Shown piece by piece: positions 1 to 11,727 of a DNA stretch of 11,727 nucleotides. Under the pieces are notes generated by a model. It saw only the letters and a program-made list of their open reading frames with translations. It was not told the origin of the DNA and made no database searches. Position numbers and translations under genes: made by a program. This stretch comes from Myxococcota bacterium (GTDB lineage: Bacteria; Myxococcota_A; UBA796; GCA-2862545), in contig JBCCQY010000226.1 in the NCBI GenBank assembly GCA_039208735.1, forward strand, positions 1-11,727, written 5' to 3'. Numbering within the stretch: position 1 is the first letter of the stretch; each line of letters starts with the position of its first letter.

Positions 1-286
1 AGCCAGTACGTTGGCCGATTGCACGTATCGGGACCCGCTCGCCCACAAGCAAGGGCATGCCGACCTCATTGGCTACATGTTGGCGTTTCACCAACAGACG
101 CCCGGAGGCCACTTCGTGACCCGACGCTACCAGCACCACCACGGCCGCAGCCTCATCGAGTGGGACATGGTGGACGGCACCGGCACGAAGCTAGGCGAAG
201 GTGCAAGCTTCGCTGAATACGCTCCCGACGGGCGCCTTCGCACGATGACCGGATTCTTCGAGACCCCACCCGAGTCTGCGGGATGA
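1..286 (+). CDS. SnoaL-like / NTF2-fold protein, 5'-truncated by the window edge
   Basis: Frame is open to the window edge (2..10 gcc agt acg). Translation has the SnoaL_2-type pattern YRDPL..xGxxxL...F...PG, followed by W(D)MVDG.G....GASF.E...DGRL...TGFF. Stop TGA overlaps the next ATG (ATGA, 283-286). Confidence 0.8.
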   Translation, partial: ASTLADCTYRDPLAHKQGHADLIGYMLAFHQQTPGGHFVTRRYQHHHGRSLIEWDMVDGTGTKLGEGASFAEYAPDGRLRTMTGFFETPPESAG

Positions 287-1164
287 CGATGCTCGAGCAG
301 GTGCAACGAGGCATCGACTACATCGAGGCCCACCTCGACCGATCGTTTGCCTTGACCGACGTGTCCCGCATCGCCGGAATGAGCCACTGGCATTTCCAGC
401 GCATGTTCCGTGCCCTGACCGGTGAGACGCTCATGACCTACGTCCGAGCGCGTCGCCTGTCACGCGCCTTGATTCGCCTGCTCGATACCGATGACCGAAT
501 CCTCGAGATCGCGCTCGATGCGGGATTCTCGTCTCACGAGAGCTTCACCCGCGCCTTCCAACGGACCTATGGTCTCGCACCGGCTGCCTTCCGGCGGCTC
601 GGGAATCGGCGCCTCTTTCCCAAGAAGCTTCGGATTGACCAGGCCTACCTCACGCACGTCGGGCAGCACGTCACCCGAGAACCCGAGATCGTGCACCGCG
701 AGGCCATGGCCGTGGTGGGAATGCAAACCTCGTTCTTCGGGGTCGACTCCGACAAGAACAACCTCGCAGAGCGCATTCCCGCCCTTTGGGACGCGTTCAC
801 GCCGCGCATGGACGAACTCGAGGGGACCCGGACGGAGTACTACGGGCTCATTTCATGTGAACCCCACTCCGAACGGCTGACCTACCTGGCCTGCGGCGAC
901 TTGGGAGGGCCCCCGCCGGCCGACATGGTGGTCGACACGGTGCCGTCGGGCACCTGGGCCGTCTTCGAGCACCGCGGGCCCCCCGAGCAGCTCGACCACA
1001 CCGTGAATTACGTCTACTCGGCTTGGCTTATGGGCTCCAAGACCTGGCGACACACCTACGGACCCGATCTCGAGATCTACGGTCCCGATTGGGCCCCAGA
1101 GTCTCCACAGTCCGTCATGCACTACGCCGTGCCCGTGGTTCAACCCGACGGGTCGCTCCGGTAG
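283..1164 (+). CDS. AraC-family transcriptional regulator with C-terminal GyrI-like effector-binding domain (Rob-like architecture)
   Basis: N-terminal AraC double HTH (IDYIEAHL...MSHWHFQRMF...YVRARRL...ILEIALDAGFSSHESFTRAFQRTYGLAPAAFR). C-terminal GyrI-like domain (VPSGTWAVFEHRG...YVYSAWL...GPDLEIY). Confidence 0.95.
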   Translation: MTMLEQVQRGIDYIEAHLDRSFALTDVSRIAGMSHWHFQRMFRALTGETLMTYVRARRLSRALIRLLDTDDRILEIALDAGFSSHESFTRAFQRTYGLAPAAFRRLGNRRLFPKKLRIDQAYLTHVGQHVTREPEIVHREAMAVVGMQTSFFGVDSDKNNLAERIPALWDAFTPRMDELEGTRTEYYGLISCEPHSERLTYLACGDLGGPPPADMVVDTVPSGTWAVFEHRGPPEQLDHTVNYVYSAWLMGSKTWRHTYGPDLEIYGPDWAPESPQSVMHYAVPVVQPDGSLR

Positions 1165-1241: not shown

Positions 1242-2873
1242 ATGTCGATGAACACGTGGCTTGAAGACCTCGACCCCGCCGATCGGGGTTTCCTCACTTG
1301 GCTTTCGGCCGTGGTGCGGCTGCCTTTGGACGACCTGCTGCAGACCATCGGCGTCGTCGCGGAGGCGGATCGCATTCGCGAACTCGACTTGTCCCCGTTG
1401 GGGCCTCACATCGCAGATCGCCCCCGCCCGCTGGACCCTCCGTTCGCGGGACTCGACGGTCTGCGCCGGCTCGACTGCTCGGGCCTTCAGCTGCCGAAAC
1501 TCGACCTTCGCTCTCTGGGTCCGCTCCGCCACCTGCGGTGCGCCGACAACGCGCTTCGCGAACTCGATGTGTCGGCCATGTCCGAACTCGAAAGCCTGGA
1601 CTGTTCAGGCAATGCGTTGATGACGTTGGACTTGCGTGGGCTGGGCGCGTTGCGCGATGTGACCTGCCGCGAGAACGGGCTTGCCATGCTGTTGATGGAT
1701 GAAGCGGTCACGCTGCATCGGCTCGACGCAAGCAGCAACCAGCTGATGGTGTTGGACCTGGGCGCCCAGCCCGTCCTCCACGAACTGTGGCTCGCGCGAA
1801 ATGCCCTGGTCTCCCTCAAAGGATCGCTGCCTGCGCTCGAGGTTCTCGAGGCTTCCCACAATCAGCTCTCGCGGTTGGATGCGGCCGAGTGGCCAGCCCT
1901 CACGACGTTGTCGGTCGCCCACAATCGTCTTGCCGCCCTCGATGTGCCGCCGACGATTTTGCAACTCGAAGTCGGCCACAACTACCTCGCAGCCCTCAAT
2001 CTCGCCGCGGCGTCCGACTTGGTCCACCTCGCGGCTGACCACAATCAGCTCGTCGCAGTGGCCTGGCCGCGCTCGAACGCCCTGGTCCGCGTCCACGTGA
2101 ACGGCAACCGCCTTTCTTCCTTGGCTTTGGGGCCTGGCCCGACCCTCGTCGTGACGTGCGATCGCAACCATCTCGCCCTGCTCGACACCACCGAGCTGCC
2201 TGCCCTGACCAAGCTTTCGTGTACCCACAACCGGCTGACCCTGCTCGATGTCCGTAAGAATCCGAACCTTGTGGATCTCGATCTTCGGAACAACCCAAAC
2301 CTGCGCACGGTCGACTTGACCCGCAACCCATGGCTGACCCATCTCGCGGTCGACGCCGAGGGGCCACGGCTCATCAAGGCCGACCGCGCCTTGTACGACA
2401 TTGCCGTACCCGACGATGCGACCCCCCTCGAAGACCTCGACACGCTTTCCCTCCACCGTGCCGCGCTGGCGTGGTGGCGCTCGGGTCGCCCCGAGCAGCT
2501 CGAAGCCATCGTCGCCCACCCCCGCTGCGACTGGGGAACGGCTGCCCTGCTTTACTGGACGCATCGCCCCTACCGGGTGCGCCGCGACGTGGATGCGTCC
2601 GCGCTCGAACCTTTCGAGGTTCCAACGTGGCGTCTCGTACAAGCCATCGAAGCGCGCGCCCAAGGCGATGGATTCGCGAGCCGCGATTGTCCCTTCAACC
2701 CGCAACACGACACCACGACGATTTCGGTCGAGGGCATGGATTGGACCCGCGAGGGTCAGGCCGATGGCGTTGTCGTGCCCCCGTTGCTTCTCGAGGCGAT
2801 TCAGCCTTCGGGCATCGGGCCCCAAACGAGATTGCCCAATGCCACGACGAGCCACCGCCAGGAAACCTCGTAG
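1242..2873 (+). CDS. Leucine-rich repeat protein with C-terminal DUF4274-like domain
   Basis: About 14-15 tandem LxxLxC/AxxNxLxxLD repeats. C-terminal LH.AAL.W...L.AIVAHPRCDWGTAALLYW resembles the DUF4274 pattern as recalled. GAGG lies upstream of the ATG. No signal peptide visible. Confidence 0.85.
   Translation: MSMNTWLEDLDPADRGFLTWLSAVVRLPLDDLLQTIGVVAEADRIRELDLSPLGPHIADRPRPLDPPFAGLDGLRRLDCSGLQLPKLDLRSLGPLRHLRCADNALRELDVSAMSELESLDCSGNALMTLDLRGLGALRDVTCRENGLAMLLMDEAVTLHRLDASSNQLMVLDLGAQPVLHELWLARNALVSLKGSLPALEVLEASHNQLSRLDAAEWPALTTLSVAHNRLAALDVPPTILQLEVGHNYLAALNLAAASDLVHLAADHNQLVAVAWPRSNALVRVHVNGNRLSSLALGPGPTLVVTCDRNHLALLDTTELPALTKLSCTHNRLTLLDVRKNPNLVDLDLRNNPNLRTVDLTRNPWLTHLAVDAEGPRLIKADRALYDIAVPDDATPLEDLDTLSLHRAALAWWRSGRPEQLEAIVAHPRCDWGTAALLYWTHRPYRVRRDVDASALEPFEVPTWRLVQAIEARAQGDGFASRDCPFNPQHDTTTISVEGMDWTREGQADGVVVPPLLLEAIQPSGIGPQTRLPNATTSHRQETS
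1461..2355 (+). repeat. Protein-level tandem LRR array, mostly 21 aa per unit (IRREKO-type consensus)
   Basis: Units such as LRHLRCADNALRELDVSAMSE, LESLDCSGNALMTLDLRGLGA, LEVLEASHNQLSRLDAAEWPA and LTKLSCTHNRLTLLDVRKNPN. Unit length 19-22 aa. Divergent at the DNA level. Confidence 0.85.
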
Positions 2874-4274: not shown

Positions 4275-5351
4275 TCAAGCACGTAGCGCCTCCGTGACCA
4301 CGTCGTCCCACGTTCGAACGGCGGGTCGTGGATGCCGACCCGCTTGGCGACGGATGGCGGCCACCCAGTCCCCGATCTTCCCCGAATGCACGATCTCGCC
4401 GCCCTCGCCCCCGAGCAACCGAGGAGCCTCGGGCAACGGTCCCGTCACCACCGGTACGCCCTGGGCGCGGTAGGCAAGCAGTTTGAGCGGACTAAACCAG
4501 GGCGGCGCATCGGTGGTGTAAGGCGCGACCCCCACGTCAAAGCCGGCCAGGATCGCGCCGACCTCCTGGGGAGGCACCTGGCCGAGCGCCACGATGCGTC
4601 GATGCGCGGGCAGCGTCACCGGCCCCGTCCCCACGGTCACCAACCACGCATCCTCCCCCAGCTCATCGACGATTGCGGGCAGTTGTTCGACCCCATGGGC
4701 CTGACGAAAGCTGCCGACAAATCCGATGACGATGCGAGCGGAATCCGGCACGGGCAACCGATGGCGGGCTCGGATGCGGTCCTCGAGCACGGCGGGCTCG
4801 ACCCCATTGGGCACCACCCGAACGCGATGCGAAGCCGCTCCTCGGCCCACCGCCCAATTGGCCAGCCATGTGCTCACGGCGATCACCCGATCGGCCGTAG
4901 CCACACGTCGCGCCGCCCGGCGCTCCACCCTGCCCCGCACCTTGGCCCCCGCAGCACGTCGTTCTTGAACCACCGGGGCATTGACTTCGATCAGCCAGCG
5001 CGCCCCCACCCGAGCGGCAAACCCTGGGACACCCGACGTGAGCGCGTGGCGCTCCCAGATCCAGTCCGGACGCCACCCATCGGCGGTCGCTCGACGGAGT
5101 CCGGCCGCCGCATCCACCCCTGCCCCAAGCGTCCGGAGTCCTCGGGGCCACCGCGTACGAGGCGCAAGGGCGATCGGTCCCCCCACCGGCTCTCCCCAAC
5201 GCCCCCGCGCATCCACCATCGCGCCCACGGACAGGCGGACGTCGTGCCCCGCTCGTCGCAGGGCTCGTACGATCGCCCGAAGGTGCTCACTTGCGCCAGA
5301 AGGGCCGAACAGCGGCACCCCTCGGTCCGCACAATGCACGAGGACTCTCAC
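4275..5351 (-). CDS. Glycosyltransferase family 4 (GT-B fold)
   Basis: Start re-called at GTG 5351, 10 bp after the CGL stop: MRVLVHCADRGVPLFGPSGASEH...L.RAGHDV, IEVNAP, ADRVIAVS, VVPNGV, GFVGSF...HG, DVGVAPY...FSPLKL..Y...GVPVV. Confidence 0.9.
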   Translation of the reverse strand: MRVLVHCADRGVPLFGPSGASEHLRAIVRALRRAGHDVRLSVGAMVDARGRWGEPVGGPIALAPRTRWPRGLRTLGAGVDAAAGLRRATADGWRPDWIWERHALTSGVPGFAARVGARWLIEVNAPVVQERRAAGAKVRGRVERRAARRVATADRVIAVSTWLANWAVGRGAASHRVRVVPNGVEPAVLEDRIRARHRLPVPDSARIVIGFVGSFRQAHGVEQLPAIVDELGEDAWLVTVGTGPVTLPAHRRIVALGQVPPQEVGAILAGFDVGVAPYTTDAPPWFSPLKLLAYRAQGVPVVTGPLPEAPRLLGGEGGEIVHSGKIGDWVAAIRRQAGRHPRPAVRTWDDVVTEALRA

Positions 5352-5361
5352 CGTCGCGAAA

Positions 5362-6522
5362 TCAGCGCAACGATGCGGCCATGGCCTGGTCCAGGTCCGC
5401 CACGAGGTCGTCGACGTGTTCGATGCCGATGGACAACCGCACCAATCCGTCGTCGATCCCCAACGCAGCCCGCTGCTCGGGCGGCACGGATGCATGCGTC
5501 ATGGACGCCGGCAGCTCGATGAGCGACTCTACGCCCCCGAGCGACTCCGCCAACGTGAAGATCTTGGTGGCCGACACGAAGTCCTCGGCTTCGGCCAACG
5601 TCGCGTCCAACACGAACGACACCATGCCCCCAAACCCGTCCATTTGTCGGTTTGCCAATCCGAATCCCGGGTCCGACTCAAGCAGGGGGTAGTGCAGGCG
5701 TTTGACGCGCGGGTGCTCCGACAGCCACTTCACGATGGCCTTCGCATTGTGTTGATGACGGTCCATGCGCACGGCGAGCGTTTTCAAACCACGCAGGGTG
5801 AGCCACGCATCCCAAGGGCCCGGCACACTCCCCACCGAATTCTGCATGAAGCGGACCGGCTCAACATCCTCGGCCGTGCGGCCAATGACGATACCCGCAA
5901 CGACATCGCTATGGCCGTTGAGGTACTTCGTCATGGAGTGCACGACGTAGTCGGCACCGTGCTCGATCGGGCGCTGAAAGATCGGCGTGGCAAAGGTGTT
6001 GTCGACCGCGAACTTCGCCCCCACCGCTCGGCACCGTGCCGACACCGCAGCGAGATCCGTCACCTTGAGCAAGGGGTTCGTCGGGGTCTCGATCCACACC
6101 ATGGCGACGCCGTCGCCGATCGCATCGGCTGGGTCCACGGTGGTGAAATCGACGTAGGAAAACGACAGGTCGCGCCGCGCCATCACCCGCTCGAACAAGC
6201 GATAGGTGCCGCCGTACAAATCGTCAGAGGCCACCACATGAGCCCCTGCAGGCAAGGTCAGCAACAGCGAGGTGGTCGCCGCGAGCCCGCTGCCAAACGC
6301 AATCGCCTCGGTGCCCCCTTCAAGGGCCGCGACACAGCGCTCGAGCGCTTCGCGGGTGGGGTTGTGCGTGCGGGCGTATTCGTAGCCCGTGTGCTGGGCA
6401 GGCCGCGGCTGTGCATAGGTCGAGGTCTGGAACACAGGCGGCATCACCGCCCCTGTGGTCGGTTCGGGCGACTGCCCCGCGTGAATGACCTTCGTGGACA
6501 GGTGCCCTTCACGATCCGGCAT
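5362..6522 (-). CDS. Cystathionine gamma-lyase / gamma-synthase (Cys/Met metabolism PLP enzyme)
   Basis: Motifs TGAVMPPVFQTSTY, YEYARTHNPTR, DDLYGGTYRLF, ETPTNP, VDNTF, SMTKYLNGHSD (PLP lysine), AESLGGVESL, RLSIGIE. ATG 6522 preferred because GGAG lies at 6532-6529; it overlaps the upstream gene by 14 bp. Confidence 0.95.
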   Translation of the reverse strand: MPDREGHLSTKVIHAGQSPEPTTGAVMPPVFQTSTYAQPRPAQHTGYEYARTHNPTREALERCVAALEGGTEAIAFGSGLAATTSLLLTLPAGAHVVASDDLYGGTYRLFERVMARRDLSFSYVDFTTVDPADAIGDGVAMVWIETPTNPLLKVTDLAAVSARCRAVGAKFAVDNTFATPIFQRPIEHGADYVVHSMTKYLNGHSDVVAGIVIGRTAEDVEPVRFMQNSVGSVPGPWDAWLTLRGLKTLAVRMDRHQHNAKAIVKWLSEHPRVKRLHYPLLESDPGFGLANRQMDGFGGMVSFVLDATLAEAEDFVSATKIFTLAESLGGVESLIELPASMTHASVPPEQRAALGIDDGLVRLSIGIEHVDDLVADLDQAMAASLR

Positions 6523-7897
6523 GGGATTCTCCAGAAAATCGCGCGACATGGTCGATCAAATCGATGCGCGACAGCACGGTCTGTAGCTCGTCTCCGTCCA
6601 TGACGAGGGCGAGTCGAACGTTGCGGAAGAGATCGGAAAGCACCCCGATCGCGGTGTCACGATCCACGACACAAAAGTCTTGGGTCGCCAACTCCCCGGC
6701 GCGGGCCGGTGGCGTCGCAGGATCAAGGGCGGCTTCGAGCAAGGTCCGCTCGTGGAGCACCCCCACCACCCGCCCCTGGCGCAAGACAGGCACCTGGCTA
6801 ATGCCATGCGCCTTGAGCAGCCCGATGGCGTCGATGGCCACGGTGGTGTCGGGAATCGTGATCGGCTGACGGGGGTGCGACCCGATGAGGTCGGCAACCG
6901 TGCCAAGATCGCGAGGGGCCGTCGATAAGCCACGGTCGGCCAACCAAGCGTCGTTGTGGATCGTGTCGAGGAAGGGATGGCCCGAATCCGGCAGCAAGAC
7001 CACCGCCGTGGCCTCCGGCCGGTCGTGGGTGCGCAGCCATCGGAGGGCTCCGGCGACTGCCGCCCCCGAAGCTCCCCCCACCAACCAGCCCTCTTCGCGG
7101 GCGAGTCGGCGCGCCACATGAAACGCCTCGGCGTCGCTTACGCGAACGACGTCGTCAACCACCGAGAAGTCCAGGGTGGACGGAAGAAAGTCTTTGCCAA
7201 TGCCCGCGACCGTATGTCGAAAGGCGGTGGTGATCTGACCGGTCTTGAAAAGGTCGAAGTAGACCGACCCCACTGGATCAACGCCAATCACCTGGACATC
7301 GGGATTCTGTTCCTTGAGGTACCGACCGATCCCCGTGATGGCCCCTCCGGTGCCCAGTCCCGCGATGAAGATGTCGATGGGATCGTCGAGCTGCGCCTCG
7401 AGTTCGGGACCCGTGACTCGGTAGTGCCCGTTTGGATTGGCCGGATTGTGGTGCTGGTTGGCGTAATAGGCGTGGGACGTCTCCGCGGCGAGTCGTTGGG
7501 CCACCCGGTAGTGGGACCGCGCATCATCCGGCTCCACTTGGGTCGGGGCGACCACCACCTTGGCTCCGACGGCCTGCAGAGCGGCTCGTTCGGCCACCGG
7601 CACATGATCGGGCACCACCACCGTGCAGCGGTAGCCTTTGATCGCCGCCGCCATCGCGAGGCCCAAGCTGGATTGCCCATCCGAGGCCTCTACGATCGTA
7701 CCGCCAGGATCAAGGTCTCCCCTTCGTTCTGCCTCATCGAGGATGGACAGCGCGACCCGGTCCTTGAGGGACCCTCCGGGATTCCGCATTTCGAGCTTCG
7801 CGTAGACCCGAATCGAAAGCGCTGCCGTCAGCCTCTGGAACCGCACCAGCGGAGTGTCGCCAACGCAGGTGAGAACTGTGTCGTGGACATTTCGCAC
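6509..7897 (-). CDS. Cystathionine beta-synthase-like protein (PLP fold II plus C-terminal CBS-domain pair) with an atypical substrate loop
   Basis: GDTPLV, YAKLE..NPGGSLKDR (PLP lysine), NQ..NPAN...HY..TGPE, GLGTGG, GVDPVGS, LAREEG.LVG.ASG, LPDSG, followed by a CBS pair (GISQVPV...VVGVL.E..LL; VLSRIDLI). GTG 7897 has GAGG 5 nt upstream; the alternative start is TTG 7945. Confidence 0.9.
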   Translation of the reverse strand: MRNVHDTVLTCVGDTPLVRFQRLTAALSIRVYAKLEMRNPGGSLKDRVALSILDEAERRGDLDPGGTIVEASDGQSSLGLAMAAAIKGYRCTVVVPDHVPVAERAALQAVGAKVVVAPTQVEPDDARSHYRVAQRLAAETSHAYYANQHHNPANPNGHYRVTGPELEAQLDDPIDIFIAGLGTGGAITGIGRYLKEQNPDVQVIGVDPVGSVYFDLFKTGQITTAFRHTVAGIGKDFLPSTLDFSVVDDVVRVSDAEAFHVARRLAREEGWLVGGASGAAVAGALRWLRTHDRPEATAVVLLPDSGHPFLDTIHNDAWLADRGLSTAPRDLGTVADLIGSHPRQPITIPDTTVAIDAIGLLKAHGISQVPVLRQGRVVGVLHERTLLEAALDPATPPARAGELATQDFCVVDRDTAIGVLSDLFRNVRLALVMDGDELQTVLSRIDLIDHVARFSGESHAGS

Positions 7898-7922
7898 CCG
7901 AACCTCAGAACCATGGGCGGGC

Positions 7923-7982
7923 CTTAGCACGACGGATGGCTCCAAGCGTCCTTCCGTCTCGGTGACGCGACCGTGCTAAGTT
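7923..7982. promoter_or_regulatory. Inverted repeat in the divergent CBS/ALDH control region; possible back-to-back extended -10 elements or an operator
   Basis: Perfect 9-bp inverted repeat CTTAGCACG (7923-7931) / CGTGCTAAG (7972-7980) with a 40-bp spacer. TGcTAAGTT (7974-7982) resembles an extended -10 for the + strand gene. Confidence 0.45.
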
Positions 7983-8007
7983 GACGTCCACGTGGGGTGG
8001 AGCCGAA

Positions 8008-9618
8008 TTGAGCGGCCAACGCGAACGACTGGTACGTCGGGGCGATTACATCTGGGGATCGTGGGTCAAGCCCGAGCGGGTCGACGGTTACATCGTCGGC
8101 GTGAACCCTGGGGATCGAACCGACGTTCTCGGCCGCTTCTCTTTTTCGGAAGCTTCCGTCGACGACGCTGTCGATTGTGCCCGTCGGGGCTCGATCTTCT
8201 GGCGCCGAGTGAGTCTCGATGATCGGGTGAAAGCGCTTCGGAAGTACCGCGATGTGCTGTCGAAGCGGCAGGAGCGGTTTGCGGAGTTGATCACTCGCGA
8301 GACGGGGAAGCCCAAGTGGGAAGCCCGGCAAGAGGTGATCGCGTCCATCCGGGCTGTCGATCTGCTGCTCGAAGAAGGGGTGACGCTGCTCGGGCCCCGG
8401 GTGCTCTCCGAGCGCGAAGCGCGCAGCGACTACCGCCCGCACGGGGTCGTCGCCATTCTCGTGCCCTACAACCTGCCGTTGCTCATCCCCACCCTGCACG
8501 TCGCCGCCTCGCTGCTCGCAGGCAACACGGTGGTGTTGAAGCCGTCCAAATTCACGCCTGGGGTGGGCCAGGCGCTCGGCGAAGCCCTCGACCGCTGCAA
8601 GCTGCCGCGCGGTGCCTTCAACCTCATCCAGGGGTCCGGCACCGGCATCGGACAGCGTCTGGCCACGCATCCCGGCATCGACGCCCTGCTTTTCAGCGGG
8701 TCATTCGCCACTGCGGTGCGACTGCGCGAGGCGAGTACCGAACGTCCAGAGTTGCCCACCTTCCTCCAGATGGGTGGAAAAGGGGCGGCCCTGGTGTTGG
8801 ATGGCTGCGATCTTCAGCGCGCCGTCTACGAAGTGTTGGTCGGGGCCTTTCTGACCGCGGGCCAGCGCAACAATTCGACGGGCCGGGTGATCGTTACCGA
8901 ATCCATCGCCGATGCATTCGTGGCTGAACTCAAGCGGCGGGCCCGTCGCGTTCAGGTCGGCTACGGCTTCGATCCTGACTGCTTCATGGGTCCTTTGATC
9001 AGCGAGAATTTCCGCACGCGGTACGGGCGGTACGGACGCGCGCTGACGGCACGAGGTCACGATGCCGTTCTCGAGTGCCAACATCGCGAGATCGAAGGTC
9101 GCAAAGGATTCTACGTCGAGCCTGCGATCTACGAGGTCGATTGGGCCAACGGACACGGATTCATCAACGATGAACCTCCCGGCCCGACGGTGCTGATCTA
9201 TCGGGTCCGCACCTGGGAAGAAGGGGTTGCCCTTCACAATCGGCTGTTCTATCGAGTCTCGACAAGCGTGTTTGCGCCACCGTCGCTGGACGACCTGCCC
9301 GAACTCGTGGGCCGGCTACGCACGGGGTCGATCAACCTCAATCGCGGCACGATCGGCGCCTCGCTGAGGCTACCCGCCGTCGGCCTGGGTCGATCGTCCA
9401 ATGGCCTTGCGGGCGGCATCGACCTGCTGCGATTCCTTTCGACGCCTCGCTCCACGCTCGTCGAGAATCGACCGTTTGATCCCGATCAGGTGGTGCCAGG
9501 CGTGAACTGGGGAGCCGAGATCGACCTGCCCACGCTGGTCGACACCTCGGGAGAGACCACCGAGACCGGTGATCGAACGGAGTCCACTACCGAGGCGATG
9601 TCGCGCGAGACGACGTAG
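8008..9618 (+). CDS. Aldehyde dehydrogenase-fold protein (AstD/succinylglutamate-semialdehyde dehydrogenase-like), probably catalytically inactive
   Basis: ALDH motifs ITRETGKPKWEA, RPHGVVAILVPYNLP, LLAGNTVVLKPS..TP, LP.G.FNLIQG, LLFSGS. However it reads LQMGGK instead of LEMGG(K/N), and AFLTAGQRNNST instead of GQRC. TTG 8008 preferred (GGAG at 7999-8002); the ORF track start is 7981. Confidence 0.9.
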   Translation: MSGQRERLVRRGDYIWGSWVKPERVDGYIVGVNPGDRTDVLGRFSFSEASVDDAVDCARRGSIFWRRVSLDDRVKALRKYRDVLSKRQERFAELITRETGKPKWEARQEVIASIRAVDLLLEEGVTLLGPRVLSEREARSDYRPHGVVAILVPYNLPLLIPTLHVAASLLAGNTVVLKPSKFTPGVGQALGEALDRCKLPRGAFNLIQGSGTGIGQRLATHPGIDALLFSGSFATAVRLREASTERPELPTFLQMGGKGAALVLDGCDLQRAVYEVLVGAFLTAGQRNNSTGRVIVTESIADAFVAELKRRARRVQVGYGFDPDCFMGPLISENFRTRYGRYGRALTARGHDAVLECQHREIEGRKGFYVEPAIYEVDWANGHGFINDEPPGPTVLIYRVRTWEEGVALHNRLFYRVSTSVFAPPSLDDLPELVGRLRTGSINLNRGTIGASLRLPAVGLGRSSNGLAGGIDLLRFLSTPRSTLVENRPFDPDQVVPGVNWGAEIDLPTLVDTSGETTETGDRTESTTEAMSRETT

Positions 9619-9687: not shown

Positions 9688-10632
9688 ATGCTTGAACGAC
9701 GGGGCCTGTCGAACGTGTCGGATGTCGCATCGGTGGCTTCGAGGCCACCCGAGATCGTGGGTGGCCGCTATCTGCTGGGCAAAGCCGTCGGGGCCGGAAG
9801 TTCGGGCACCGTCTACCTCGCGCGCGACCGTCAGAGTGGGGACCGCTTTGCCGTCAAGGTGCGGGAGGCGCAAGGCCGTGAACAGCCGGTGCGGTTCTTG
9901 GCCGAGGCTCGGGACATGGCCCGATTGCGGCACCCTCGCCTCGTGCCCGTGGTGGACAGTGGCAACGACGGAGACCTTTACTGGTTCGTGATGCCCTTCT
10001 TCGCCCGTGGCAGCCTTCGCGATCAGATCAAGCGCAATGGCCCCTTGTCTTCGGTGGAAGGGCTCGAATGCATCTTCCGCGTGCTCGAGGGACTCGATGC
10101 GGTCCACAAAGCGGGCCTTGTACACCGCGATGTGAAGCCCCACAACGTGCTCATCGACGATGATGGCGTGCCCGTCATCACCGACTTTGGGCTGGTGCGA
10201 CACCTGCACGGCGGCGTTCCGTACCGCACCCGCACCGACCAATCGATGGGCACGCCCAACTACCGGGCTCCGGAGCAGGCGGTCGACGCGGCCAACGTCG
10301 ATCATCGCGCCGATATCTACGGGGTCGGCGCAACCCTGTACTTCCTGCTCACGTCTCGTCGACCGGGCTTTTTGTACATGGTCGACGAACACGATCCCAC
10401 GATGGCCACCGTGGACCCCACGATCCGCCCCTTCATCTTGCGTTGCATGGCCTACGAGGCCGATGAACGCTACGCAAACGCACGTGATGCGGCCATCGCG
10501 GTCGAACAGCTCGCGTTCGACCTCGGCCCGCAGCGCGGTCGACCCGAACTGGGGCAGGGCTGGATGCGGCGGTTTGACCGAGGAGGTCGCCGCACGTGGT
10601 GGGAGCGCTTTGTGGCGTGGGTGCTTGGGTAG
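9688..10632 (+). CDS. Hanks-type (eukaryotic-like) Ser/Thr protein kinase, kinase domain only
   Basis: GAGSSGTVY, FAVK, RFLAEAR (alphaC Glu), HRDVKPHN, ITDFGL, MGTPNYRAPEQ, ADIYGVG and ERY are all intact. Exact start uncertain (ATG 9688 or GTG 9715). Confidence 0.95.
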   Translation: MLERRGLSNVSDVASVASRPPEIVGGRYLLGKAVGAGSSGTVYLARDRQSGDRFAVKVREAQGREQPVRFLAEARDMARLRHPRLVPVVDSGNDGDLYWFVMPFFARGSLRDQIKRNGPLSSVEGLECIFRVLEGLDAVHKAGLVHRDVKPHNVLIDDDGVPVITDFGLVRHLHGGVPYRTRTDQSMGTPNYRAPEQAVDAANVDHRADIYGVGATLYFLLTSRRPGFLYMVDEHDPTMATVDPTIRPFILRCMAYEADERYANARDAAIAVEQLAFDLGPQRGRPELGQGWMRRFDRGGRRTWWERFVAWVLG

Positions 10633-10633
10633 C

Positions 10634-11422
10634 CTACGGGCCCGAACTCACCACTTGGTACTGGTAGCCAATGAAGCGGTAGACCCCGTTCTTGACGCCA
10701 TCGGCCTGCGGGACGTCGGCGAGGAGGATCGGGATGTTGTCGCCGCCGGCGTCTACGACGAGCGTGCCGTCTGGCTCTGCCTCGAACGCAATCGTGGCGA
10801 TGGCTTCCACCCGCGAAAACGTCCACCGGTCGGACAGGCGAACCTCTCCGCCAATGATGCGTTCTTCTTCGATGGAGGAACTCGTAGCCCAACCGACGGC
10901 ATTGGCCGAAGGCCGTTCCACGAGAATGGCCCAGTCGACCTCGCTGCCATCCCGGTTCGTCGTGAGGAATTCAACAAGCGAACCGCTGTAGAACTCCCAG
11001 ATCCGCGAGTACTCGGGGTTTTCGCAGTTCGTGATCACCTGATCGAGGTCGACCAACAACGAAGCGCCCCAGAACTCGTCTTCGTCGAGGTAGGGCAGTC
11101 GCTGCGCCCCGATGCCCCGAATGGGCACGAGCACCTCGCACGAATTGCCATTTAAACCATCGTATTCGTCGTCACCTACGATGAACTGAATGGCGGAGGT
11201 GCTGTCGCCGCTGCTCTCGTTGAGCCAAGGCCCGGGCAATCCGGTGTCCTCATCCACCCGAAACACCGCGTTCACGCGAAGTCGCGTCTCCCGCAACGGT
11301 GGCAGGGGTTCCATCCCCGAATCGCCAAAGGTCGCAGTGGGGTTCCGAAACACGGGAGGCGGCCCTTCCTCTTCCGCACAACCAAGGAGGCCGAGGACGA
11401 GGCTCGAGGTCCAGACGAACAT
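10634..11422 (-). CDS. Acidic hypothetical lipoprotein
   Basis: MFVWTSSLVLGLLG-C gives lipobox LLGC. GGAG lies 5 nt upstream of ATG 11422; the alternative GTG 11440 overlaps the upstream stop. The mature region is D/E-rich with alternating hydrophobic, beta-strand-like segments. Confidence 0.8.
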   Translation of the reverse strand: MFVWTSSLVLGLLGCAEEEGPPPVFRNPTATFGDSGMEPLPPLRETRLRVNAVFRVDEDTGLPGPWLNESSGDSTSAIQFIVGDDEYDGLNGNSCEVLVPIRGIGAQRLPYLDEDEFWGASLLVDLDQVITNCENPEYSRIWEFYSGSLVEFLTTNRDGSEVDWAILVERPSANAVGWATSSSIEEERIIGGEVRLSDRWTFSRVEAIATIAFEAEPDGTLVVDAGGDNIPILLADVPQADGVKNGVYRFIGYQYQVVSSGP

Positions 11423-11436
11423 GGCGACTCCAGGAT

Positions 11437-11727
11437 TCACCGCGCGGCTTCCCGGCGAGGAAGTGGCGCGGGGGATGGCAGTTTCTCGGGATCGAGACGG
11501 ACGACAAACGTCGACCCTTGCCCACTCACGGAATGTACATCGAGCTCCCCACCATGCGCTTCGACAATTCGTCGACAGATGGGAAGCCCCAGACCCGTGC
11601 CACCTTGCTTCGTGGTGAAGAAGGGAACGAAGAGTTTTTCTCGGACATCGGCGTCAATACCTGCCCCAGTGTCCGAAACGGCGACCTCGATGGACGGCCC
11701 CGCCCGTCGCCCGATCTGACGGGTGCG
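11437..11727 (-). CDS. Sensor histidine kinase, C-terminal HATPase_c part (gene starts beyond the window)
   Basis: Not in the ORF track. Manual translation from 11727: RTRQIGRRAGPSIEVAVSDTGAGIDADVREKLFVPFFTTKQGGTGLGLPICRRIVEAHGGELDVHSVSGQGSTFVVRLDPEKLPSPAPLPRREAAR*. It contains the G1 (DTGAG), F (FVPFFTTK) and G2 (GTGLGL) boxes. TGA at 11439-11437. Confidence 0.95.
   Translation of the reverse strand, partial: RTRQIGRRAGPSIEVAVSDTGAGIDADVREKLFVPFFTTKQGGTGLGLPICRRIVEAHGGELDVHSVSGQGSTFVVRLDPEKLPSPAPLPRREAAR

Follow-up and report, generated by a model that had tools for sequence, protein, structure and literature searches.

The window analyzed here, all 11,727 nucleotides of contig C226 (JBCCQY010000226.1) of a Myxococcota genome designated G000 (9.4 Mb, 64% GC), encodes at positions 8008 to 9618 a protein with the fold of an aldehyde dehydrogenase (ALDH), which, judging from comparison with its relatives, is very probably an old pseudoenzyme derived from AstD and incapable of thiol-dependent aldehyde oxidation. 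An earlier note, made from the letters of this DNA alone, had read the gene as a pseudoenzyme, and the present analysis agrees with it: the nucleophilic Cys is found in none of 119 database homologues (57 to 79% identity) and in none of 71 genomes of the same order, the gene is under purifying selection, the predicted fold is intact, and no relocated Cys is conserved.

Assignment to AstD and replacement of the catalytic residues

Residue numbers are counted from the TTG at 7981, which opens an open reading frame (ORF) of 545 amino acids (aa); subtraction of 9 gives the numbering from the TTG at 8008, the start adopted in the earlier note, which is backed by a GGAG at 7999 to 8002, by a 536-aa database record, and by orthologues whose starts fall on the aligned codon. 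ALDH2 numbers follow PMC8160307 or common usage and were assigned by motif, not by alignment of ALDH2 itself. The ORF contains no internal stop codon, and the motifs LQMGGK and GQRNNST, 34 codons apart, as well as FSGS, PYNLP, and KPS, are located as the earlier note had described. HMMER alignments with three solved AstD-type structures place, without gaps, Gln263 on the Glu of their lemgg motif and Asn297 on the Cys of gqrct, so that the general base and the nucleophile are both replaced. Three further statements hold in part. The EEIFGP motif does read DEPPGP, but its ribose-binding Glu398 (ALDH2 Glu399 by motif) is retained and it is the Phe that is lost. The oxyanion Asn is kept in the window protein (Asn164), though in only 48 of the 71 genomes of the order and in 0 of 19 other genomes of the class. 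Sequencing error as the source of the Cys-to-Asn replacement was correctly judged unlikely and is excluded by the AAC codon common to the congeners G001 and G004, but the two-base change then invoked does not stand, Asn being one base away from the family's His codon CAC.

The protein matches PF00171 as a single Aldedh domain (315.8 bits, 5e-94, profile positions 1 to 456 of 461), and the best NCBIfam models are those of AstD, reached at about half their cut-offs (TIGR03240, 262.8 versus 579.3; NF006992, 272.5 versus 514); three intact relatives tested likewise also score under the AstD cut-offs. The maintenance of an AstD-like fold, as proposed earlier, is supported by an AlphaFold2 model (predicted local distance difference test [pLDDT] 86.8, predicted template modeling [pTM] score 0.84) that has the three-domain ALDH structure with disorder at the ends only, and by Foldseek, which returns AstD-type structures first (TM score, 0.83 to 0.84; 0.82 to 0.84 over AstD and ALDH9A1). 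The ESM Atlas, consulted without structure search, gave ordinary ALDH clusters only. In a quick mixture tree built without the two catalytic columns, 15 members of the class form one branch (Shimodaira-Hasegawa-like approximate likelihood ratio test [SH-aLRT], 100) nested in the AstD-like group. AstD (PDB 4kna, 3ju8, and 5u0l) is the best match by profile, sequence, and fold; it has the GQR motif and a PG tail at the C terminus in common with the window family, which differs from it by lacking the Cys, the Glu, the nicotinamide Phe, and the aromatic-box Phe. The window protein descends from AstD, yet catalytic residues, score, and pathway set it outside AstD proper.

Variation at the catalytic positions and order of the losses

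We tallied 90 genomes of the class at one locus each, 71 in the window's order and 19 outside it, chosen by score and not at random. Glu and Cys occur together in none of the 90, so close homologues do not retain the pair, which disposes of the private lesion that the earlier note had allowed for. Position 263 in the order is Gln in 55 genomes, Glu in 5, Asn in 4, and Leu in 3, and none of the five with Glu again at the general base has the Cys. Position 297 is His in 56 (codon CAC in 53), Pro in 5, Ala in 4, Asn in 3, and Gly, Phe, and Tyr in 1 each; the same column in the 119 database homologues holds His in 104, Tyr and Pro in 4 each, Asn, Gln, and Phe in 2 each, and Gly in 1. Unlike any catalytic residue, position 297 tolerates His, Pro, Ala, Asn, Gly, Phe, and Tyr. 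The suggestion that Gln and Asn mark a conserved clade therefore stands for Gln at the level of the order; at the nucleophile the consensus is His, Asn being a variant of the genus, and the loss of Glu is older, reaching the level of the class. None of the 19 genomes outside the order has the Glu, whereas Cys persists in 8 (families f8 and f9) and is otherwise replaced by Phe, Arg, or Ala; the simplest reading is that Glu was lost in the ancestor of the class and Cys several times later.

It is highly improbable that the protein remains an ALDH by means of a relocated Cys, such as Cys264 or Cys206. Cys264 is found in 94 of 119 database homologues and Cys206 in 146 of 149, and the original Cys survives in the 8 outer members just mentioned. 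However, residue 264 of the window protein is Met and its stretch from 277 to 333 contains no Cys, Cys264 is present in only 35 of the 71 order genomes, Cys206 lies at a helix end of the NAD domain in the AlphaFold2 model and is Ala in most outer members, and the outer members that retain the original Cys lack both the Glu and the oxyanion Asn. The check for a relocated active-site Cys, called for by the earlier note, thus led us to reject this candidate.

A different, non-thiol chemistry on the ALDH scaffold would agree with the prevalence of His at the nucleophile position, with the invariance of Arg296 and Arg302, and with two further His residues, His360 and His419, which are fixed in the closest 150 sequences. 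Such a new enzyme nevertheless appears improbable, given that His297 is Asn here and Pro, Ala, Gly, Phe, or Tyr elsewhere, that His360 and His419 drop to 88% in divergent members of the order while most other class members lack them, and that the cleft has gained no class-wide invariant residue of catalytic type.

Among the best 150 representatives of a profile search, both Glu and Cys are present in 91, Cys alone in 17, Glu alone in 6, and neither in 29, while 7 do not cover the sites. In the quick mixture tree, a number of dead proteins fall with the AstD of Bdellovibrionota and separately from the window family, and a constraint joining 15 dead rows into one group was rejected by the approximately unbiased (AU) test (31 of 61 rows, LG+G4) with a p-AU of 0.0007, a value that is optimistic because the groups, defined after an earlier tree, were named after seeing it. 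On this comparison, dead AstD-like proteins appear to have arisen at least twice.

Conservation across the class and absence of an active counterpart

An orthologue was found at E ≤ 2e-100 in 39 of 40 relatives, the sole miss being a genome 71% complete, with a wide score gap between the orthologue and the next match; in a sample of the phylum with four candidates scored per genome, there was one match in each of 43 same-order genomes. Other families of the class also carry the gene. Relative to the congener G001, whose ALDH is 92% identical, the nonsynonymous (dN) and synonymous (dS) rates are 0.053 and 1.24, respectively, corresponding to a dN/dS of about 0.04, which is rough and probably an upper bound because dS is near saturation. 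The same inputs are 0.099 and 1.17 for the neighboring cystathionine gamma-lyase (CGL)-family gene and 0.265 and 1.35 for the neighboring GT4 glycosyltransferase gene, both higher than for the ALDH gene. The dead AstD-like gene is accordingly an old family, under strong purifying selection and single-copy across the class, as the earlier note had anticipated in asking for a conserved clade. A recent lesion, a decaying gene, or an assembly error can practically be discarded: one frameshifted copy does exist (a family gene split at 11773 to 13245 of contig C149 in genome G366), but the codon shared by the congeners, the low dN/dS, and the order-wide presence had already refuted this explanation. 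Two records titled Enterobacterales (L037) and Klebsiella pneumoniae (L040) carry the family at 54 to 57% identity; the titles probably belong to mislabelled bins, and L037 has a head-to-head cystathionine beta-synthase (CBS) gene while L040 shares the neighbors of L038 and L044.

The nearest intact relatives, from Bdellovibrionota, adjoin genes for AstA, an M20 peptidase, and a class III aminotransferase. When 121 genomes of the class were searched with a profile built from 26 intact proteins, 12 candidates being scored per genome, no intact AstD-type gene was detected: the best match, at 542 bits, is a dead member, as are all three matches above 500 bits, compared with 583 to 720 bits for 20 intact loci and 498 to 531 bits for four proteobacterial AstDs scored with the same profile. 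AstA (PF04958) was found in 0 of the 121 genomes, with positive controls in Escherichia coli and Caulobacter; this search did not extend to AstB or AstE. Eight other ALDHs of G000 carry Glu and Cys, but none is the intact astD paralogue for which the earlier note proposed to look; they are 23 to 32% identical and of other families, and the second-best matches retrieved likewise represent another ALDH family. Since neither an intact AstD-type paralogue nor AstA was found, the dead gene has replaced the live one, the orthologue itself having lost catalysis and been retained. This speaks against the earlier proposal that the protein regulates an active paralogue in hetero-oligomers. Regulation of any active ALDH through mixed oligomers, which are known for an inactive ALDH2 variant according to excerpts of PMC10211241 and for which the eight other ALDHs would be the catalytically equipped partners, is very unlikely for the same reason and because these eight are so distant.

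Remodeling of the cofactor cleft and of the surface

The cleft was compared with that of 144 intact relatives, defined as rows with Glu and Cys exclusive of 21 outgroup rows and of G000's own paralogues. The order has lost Gly245, Asn268, Phe400, Gly425, and Phe466 and, for the most part, Thr239 and Phe165, all residues of the nicotinamide pocket or the aromatic box: Thr239 is present in 33 of 71 order genomes versus 142 of 144 intact relatives, Phe occurs at 400 in none of the 71 (Glu398 is retained in 61), and position 425 is Arg in 69 of 71, with two gaps, versus Gly in 137 of 144. On the adenosine side, by contrast with these losses, Lys187 (70/71), Ser189 (71/71), Gly218 (71/71), and Gly240 (69/71) are retained, and position 190 is Lys in 71 of 71 versus Glu or Asp in 136 of 144. 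As described in passages of PMC8160307, Lys192 and Glu195 contact the adenine ribose, and loss of the acid together with a basic residue is linked to binding of a 2'-phosphate. The conserved adenosine subsite combined with the Lys190 fixed in the order suggests, at the level of residue tallies, that a phosphorylated adenosine nucleotide is bound. Arg296, whose equivalent binds the substrate carboxylate in PutA and ALDH7A1 according to parts of PMC12398946 and PMC13162559, is conserved without exception in the 90 class genomes and the 144 intact relatives.

Outside the cleft, the most conserved region of the family comprises residues 14 to 57, with a mean top-residue frequency of 0.81 in the order versus 0.35 in the intact relatives. 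The new invariants of the family include Gly51, Phe55, Asp204, and Arg210, and those that are class-wide (Ser27, Asp204, Tyr283, Gly475, Phe499, and Trp510) lie mostly outside the cofactor cleft. The N-terminal hairpin together with Asp204 and Arg210 is a candidate partner surface, of which the contiguity is inferred. The core of the window protein has a net charge of +8, versus -2 to -15 in the eight other ALDHs of G000; the median is +8 in the order (positive in 65 of 69 proteins), -4 in the intact relatives, and -3.5 in class members outside the order.

Genomic neighborhood and expression signals

The features of the window are collected in Table 1. Of 83 distinct loci, 52 have a CBS-like gene head-to-head with the ALDH gene, and 66 have CBS or GT4 in this arrangement within 1.5 kb; CGL, GT4, and PlsB often follow in the divergent operon, and the downstream side is variable. 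A strict promoter consensus scan found no promoter. A TAnnnT element nevertheless lies upstream in 49 of the 71 order loci versus 17.1 ± 3.5 in shuffles, and a perfect 9-bp inverted pair (7923 to 7931 and 7972 to 7980, 40 bp apart) is read as two extended -10-like elements placed back to back, one for the ALDH gene and one for the CBS operon.

The CBS-like gene of G000 keeps the pyridoxal phosphate (PLP) lysine, but its substrate loop reads ASDGQSS versus ATSGNTG in orthologues and two other motifs differ, so that it is possibly a decaying or repurposed copy; no CBS gene was found beside the ALDH gene in G001. A degenerate CBS partner throughout the family was considered and rejected, as most neighboring CBS genes have canonical motifs. 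We also discarded the downstream kinase as a partner because its adjacency is restricted to the genus (all 5 genus genomes, and none of the other loci examined). G000 has a second CBS-like gene (contig C1, 3222 to 4556), and the CBS-like genes of L035 and L037 deviate too. In family f8 (L149, L154, L155, and L156; for example, 7515 to 8726 of L154), a gene for a protein of about 400 aa without Pfam match is located between the dead ALDH gene and GT4, and a weak relative of that protein is encoded on contig C34 of G000.

The shared neighborhood is what would be expected if the protein bound polyanions, membranes, or nucleic acids and regulated the head-to-head CBS-CGL-GT4-PlsB operon or the products encoded there; regulators are overrepresented among conserved divergent gene pairs (Korbel 2004, cited in a passage of PMC7355258), and the core is basic in the order. 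We consider this quite unlikely, however, because the Pfam scan finds no DNA-binding domain, the median charge is negative outside the order, overlapping back-to-back promoters can by themselves preserve gene order, and the ALDH is 92% identical between G000, where CBS is degenerate, and G001, where CBS was not found adjoining. The divergent sulfur and lipid operon is only a lead to the partner.

Table 1 Features of the window (contig C226 of G000)
Feature	Position	Strand	Basis or remark
AstD-derived ALDH-fold pseudoenzyme gene (probable)	8008..9618	+	536 aa from TTG 8008; Pfam Aldedh, NCBIfam AstD, AlphaFold2, Foldseek
Ribosome-binding site GGAG and TTG start	7999..8010 (GGAG 7999-8002)	+	Sequence
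Extended -10-like element TG-n-TAAGTT	7974..7982	+	Sequence
N-terminal beta-hairpin region, residues 14-57	8020..8151	+	Family conservation; candidate partner surface with Asp204 and Arg210
KPSK adenosine-ribose motif: Lys187 retained, Glu replaced by Lys190	8539..8550	+	Column tallies
Gln263, replaces general-base Glu	8767..8769	+	CAG in LQMGGK
Arg296, substrate-carboxylate residue preceding the lost Cys	8866..8868	+	Column tallies
Asn297, replaces nucleophile Cys (family consensus His)	8869..8871	+	AAC in GQRNNST
DEPPGP: Glu398 retained, nicotinamide-ribose Phe replaced by Pro400	9169..9186	+	Column tallies
Arg425, replaces conserved Gly beside nicotinamide pocket	9253..9255	+	Column tallies
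End of ordered core at about Trp510, then 35-residue acidic Thr/Glu-rich tail of low model confidence	~9510	+	AlphaFold2
CBS-like gene (PALP and CBS domains), head-to-head neighbor; likely start near 7897	6509..7945	-	Pfam
Cystathionine gamma-lyase/synthase-family gene of divergent operon	5362..6549	-	Pfam, neighbor clusters
GT4 glycosyltransferase of divergent operon; neighbor common to other orders of the class	4275..5345	-	Pfam, neighbor clusters
Ser/Thr kinase, downstream	9688..10632	+	Pfam; adjacency only in the window's genus
AraC/GyrI regulator	283-1164		Pfam
Leucine-rich-repeat protein with C-terminal DUF4274-like domain	1242-2873		Pfam
YaaA	3254-4042		Pfam
Probable lipoprotein, no Pfam match; two tandem copies in G001	10634-11440	-	-

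Predicted function

A gene kept across the group without a working version must do a different job. We tentatively predict a low-copy, non-catalytic, nucleotide-binding adaptor or regulator, a reading that we regard as a serious possibility somewhat short of probable. The AstD-derived protein, devoid of catalysis, would have been retained for binding. It would keep the AstD dimer; its adenosine subsite with Lys190 would bind, but not turn over, NADP(H), 2'-phospho-ADP-ribose, or a coenzyme A (CoA)-type ligand; Arg296, together with the anchor loop, may retain the ability to bind a small acid; and the newly conserved surface would dock a partner protein. Synthesis would be constitutive and at low dose, driven by a sigma-70-type -10 element and a GTG or TTG start, and this low dose suggests that the protein acts as a metabolite-sensing adaptor or regulator.

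Several observations weigh against this prediction. In the 19 genomes outside the order, Lys187 is replaced by Asn in 5, Ser occupies position 190 in 16, and most have lost Phe238; because the adenosine residues vary there, nucleotide binding may be specific to the order or residual. The invariance of Arg296 may be structural, being shared with the intact relatives. Families f7 (0 of 8 loci) and f10 (0 of 2) are without the divergent operon. The excess of weak starts (GTG or TTG in 68 of 71 order loci versus ATG in 26 of 52 neighboring CBS genes) depends on taking as start the in-frame start nearest to the aligned position, and the candidate partner surface was derived from the sequence and the general topology of ALDHs rather than from coordinates. 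Finally, the Pfam scan of the window protein detected no helix-turn-helix or other effector domain.

The variation of the adenosine site outside the order would also fit a protein that binds no ligand and serves a conserved complex as scaffold or structural subunit, the residues of the cofactor site being leftovers, and so would the location of the class-wide new invariants mostly off the cleft; the second AldDH of GRM1 loci, also dead and proposed to be a scaffold (part of PMC4207490), sets a bacterial precedent. This we find rather unlikely: Lys190 and Arg425 are gains in or beside the cofactor cleft, the conservation of a weak start codon is more in keeping with a protein made at low dose than with a structural one made in bulk, and no shell or complex genes are linked among the window genes and annotated neighbor clusters.

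The prediction of a nucleotide-binding adaptor or regulator can be extended further, in a form that is speculative and somewhat doubtful. AstD-like proteins of myxobacteria- and Bdellovibrio-like bacteria would carry a second, non-catalytic job and would have dropped catalysis more than once; here, the sole survivor of the pathway would have been rebuilt as a universal, probably essential sensor of phospho-adenosine nucleotides that steers sulfur amino acid or envelope-lipid synthesis via a partner, which would constitute a new bacterial family of ALDH-fold regulators. If this is true, the still-active orthologues of culturable relatives are moonlighting proteins in which the second job can be found.

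Relation to known pseudoenzymes and to other AstD-like proteins

Dead ALDHs are already known, their roles being largely unsettled. Vertebrate ALDH16A1 has the ALDH fold without catalytic residues and is proposed to be a binding protein in parts of PMC8160307 and PMC12041015; the window protein belongs to a different ALDH family, is of independent origin, and, at 536 aa, has no extra C-terminal Rossmann-like domain, and chains of ALDH16 length (6mvr and 6mvu) rank far below AstD in the HMMER comparison with sequences of known structures. The second AldDH of GRM1 microcompartment loci, described in a section of PMC4207490, is likewise a bacterial ALDH-superfamily protein in which the Cys is replaced, with a proposed role as a scaffold or regulator; it is, however, an extra copy beside an active AldDH, whereas the window protein is the only AstD-type copy and has lost the Glu too. 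Neither shell nor cut genes were detected among the window genes or annotated neighbor clusters.

In the main texts of the open-access literature we found no description of this pseudoenzyme family. New in this work are the extent of the family across the class, the sequence in which the catalytic residues were lost, the lack of both pathway and paralogue, the rebuilt adenosine site, the conservation of a weak start codon, and the test of independent origin. The case is one of a dead ALDH that is the only copy, has outlived its pathway, and is more conserved than the adjoining real enzymes across the class, and the natural gradation from intact proteins through those without Glu to those without either Glu or Cys, with specific residues, offers a clean system for the ALDH fold without chemistry. 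Database records name these proteins succinylglutamic semialdehyde dehydrogenase, an annotation error that misleads because the arginine pathway it implies was not found in these genomes (AstA in 0 of 121).

Some other AstD-like proteins were encountered. In the intact AstD-like genes of Bdellovibrionales (L052 to L073), mltG (YceG) is directly next in 16 clustered loci. A search of longer proteins gave eight matches, seven ALDH-aminotransferase fusions and one PutA, all at most 36% identical to the window protein; AstD-like domains fused to a class III aminotransferase and GNAT are found in P0183, P0185, P0188, P0205, P0242, and P0296 to P0302 (1000 to 1760 aa). In P0123 (847 aa), a singleton record, a member of the window family is fused behind a Ser/Thr kinase domain. 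P0213, P0244, P0150, P0239, and P0249 form an AstD-like subclade with His as the general base and the Cys retained, and two members of this subclade have a 330-residue N-terminal extension without Pfam match.

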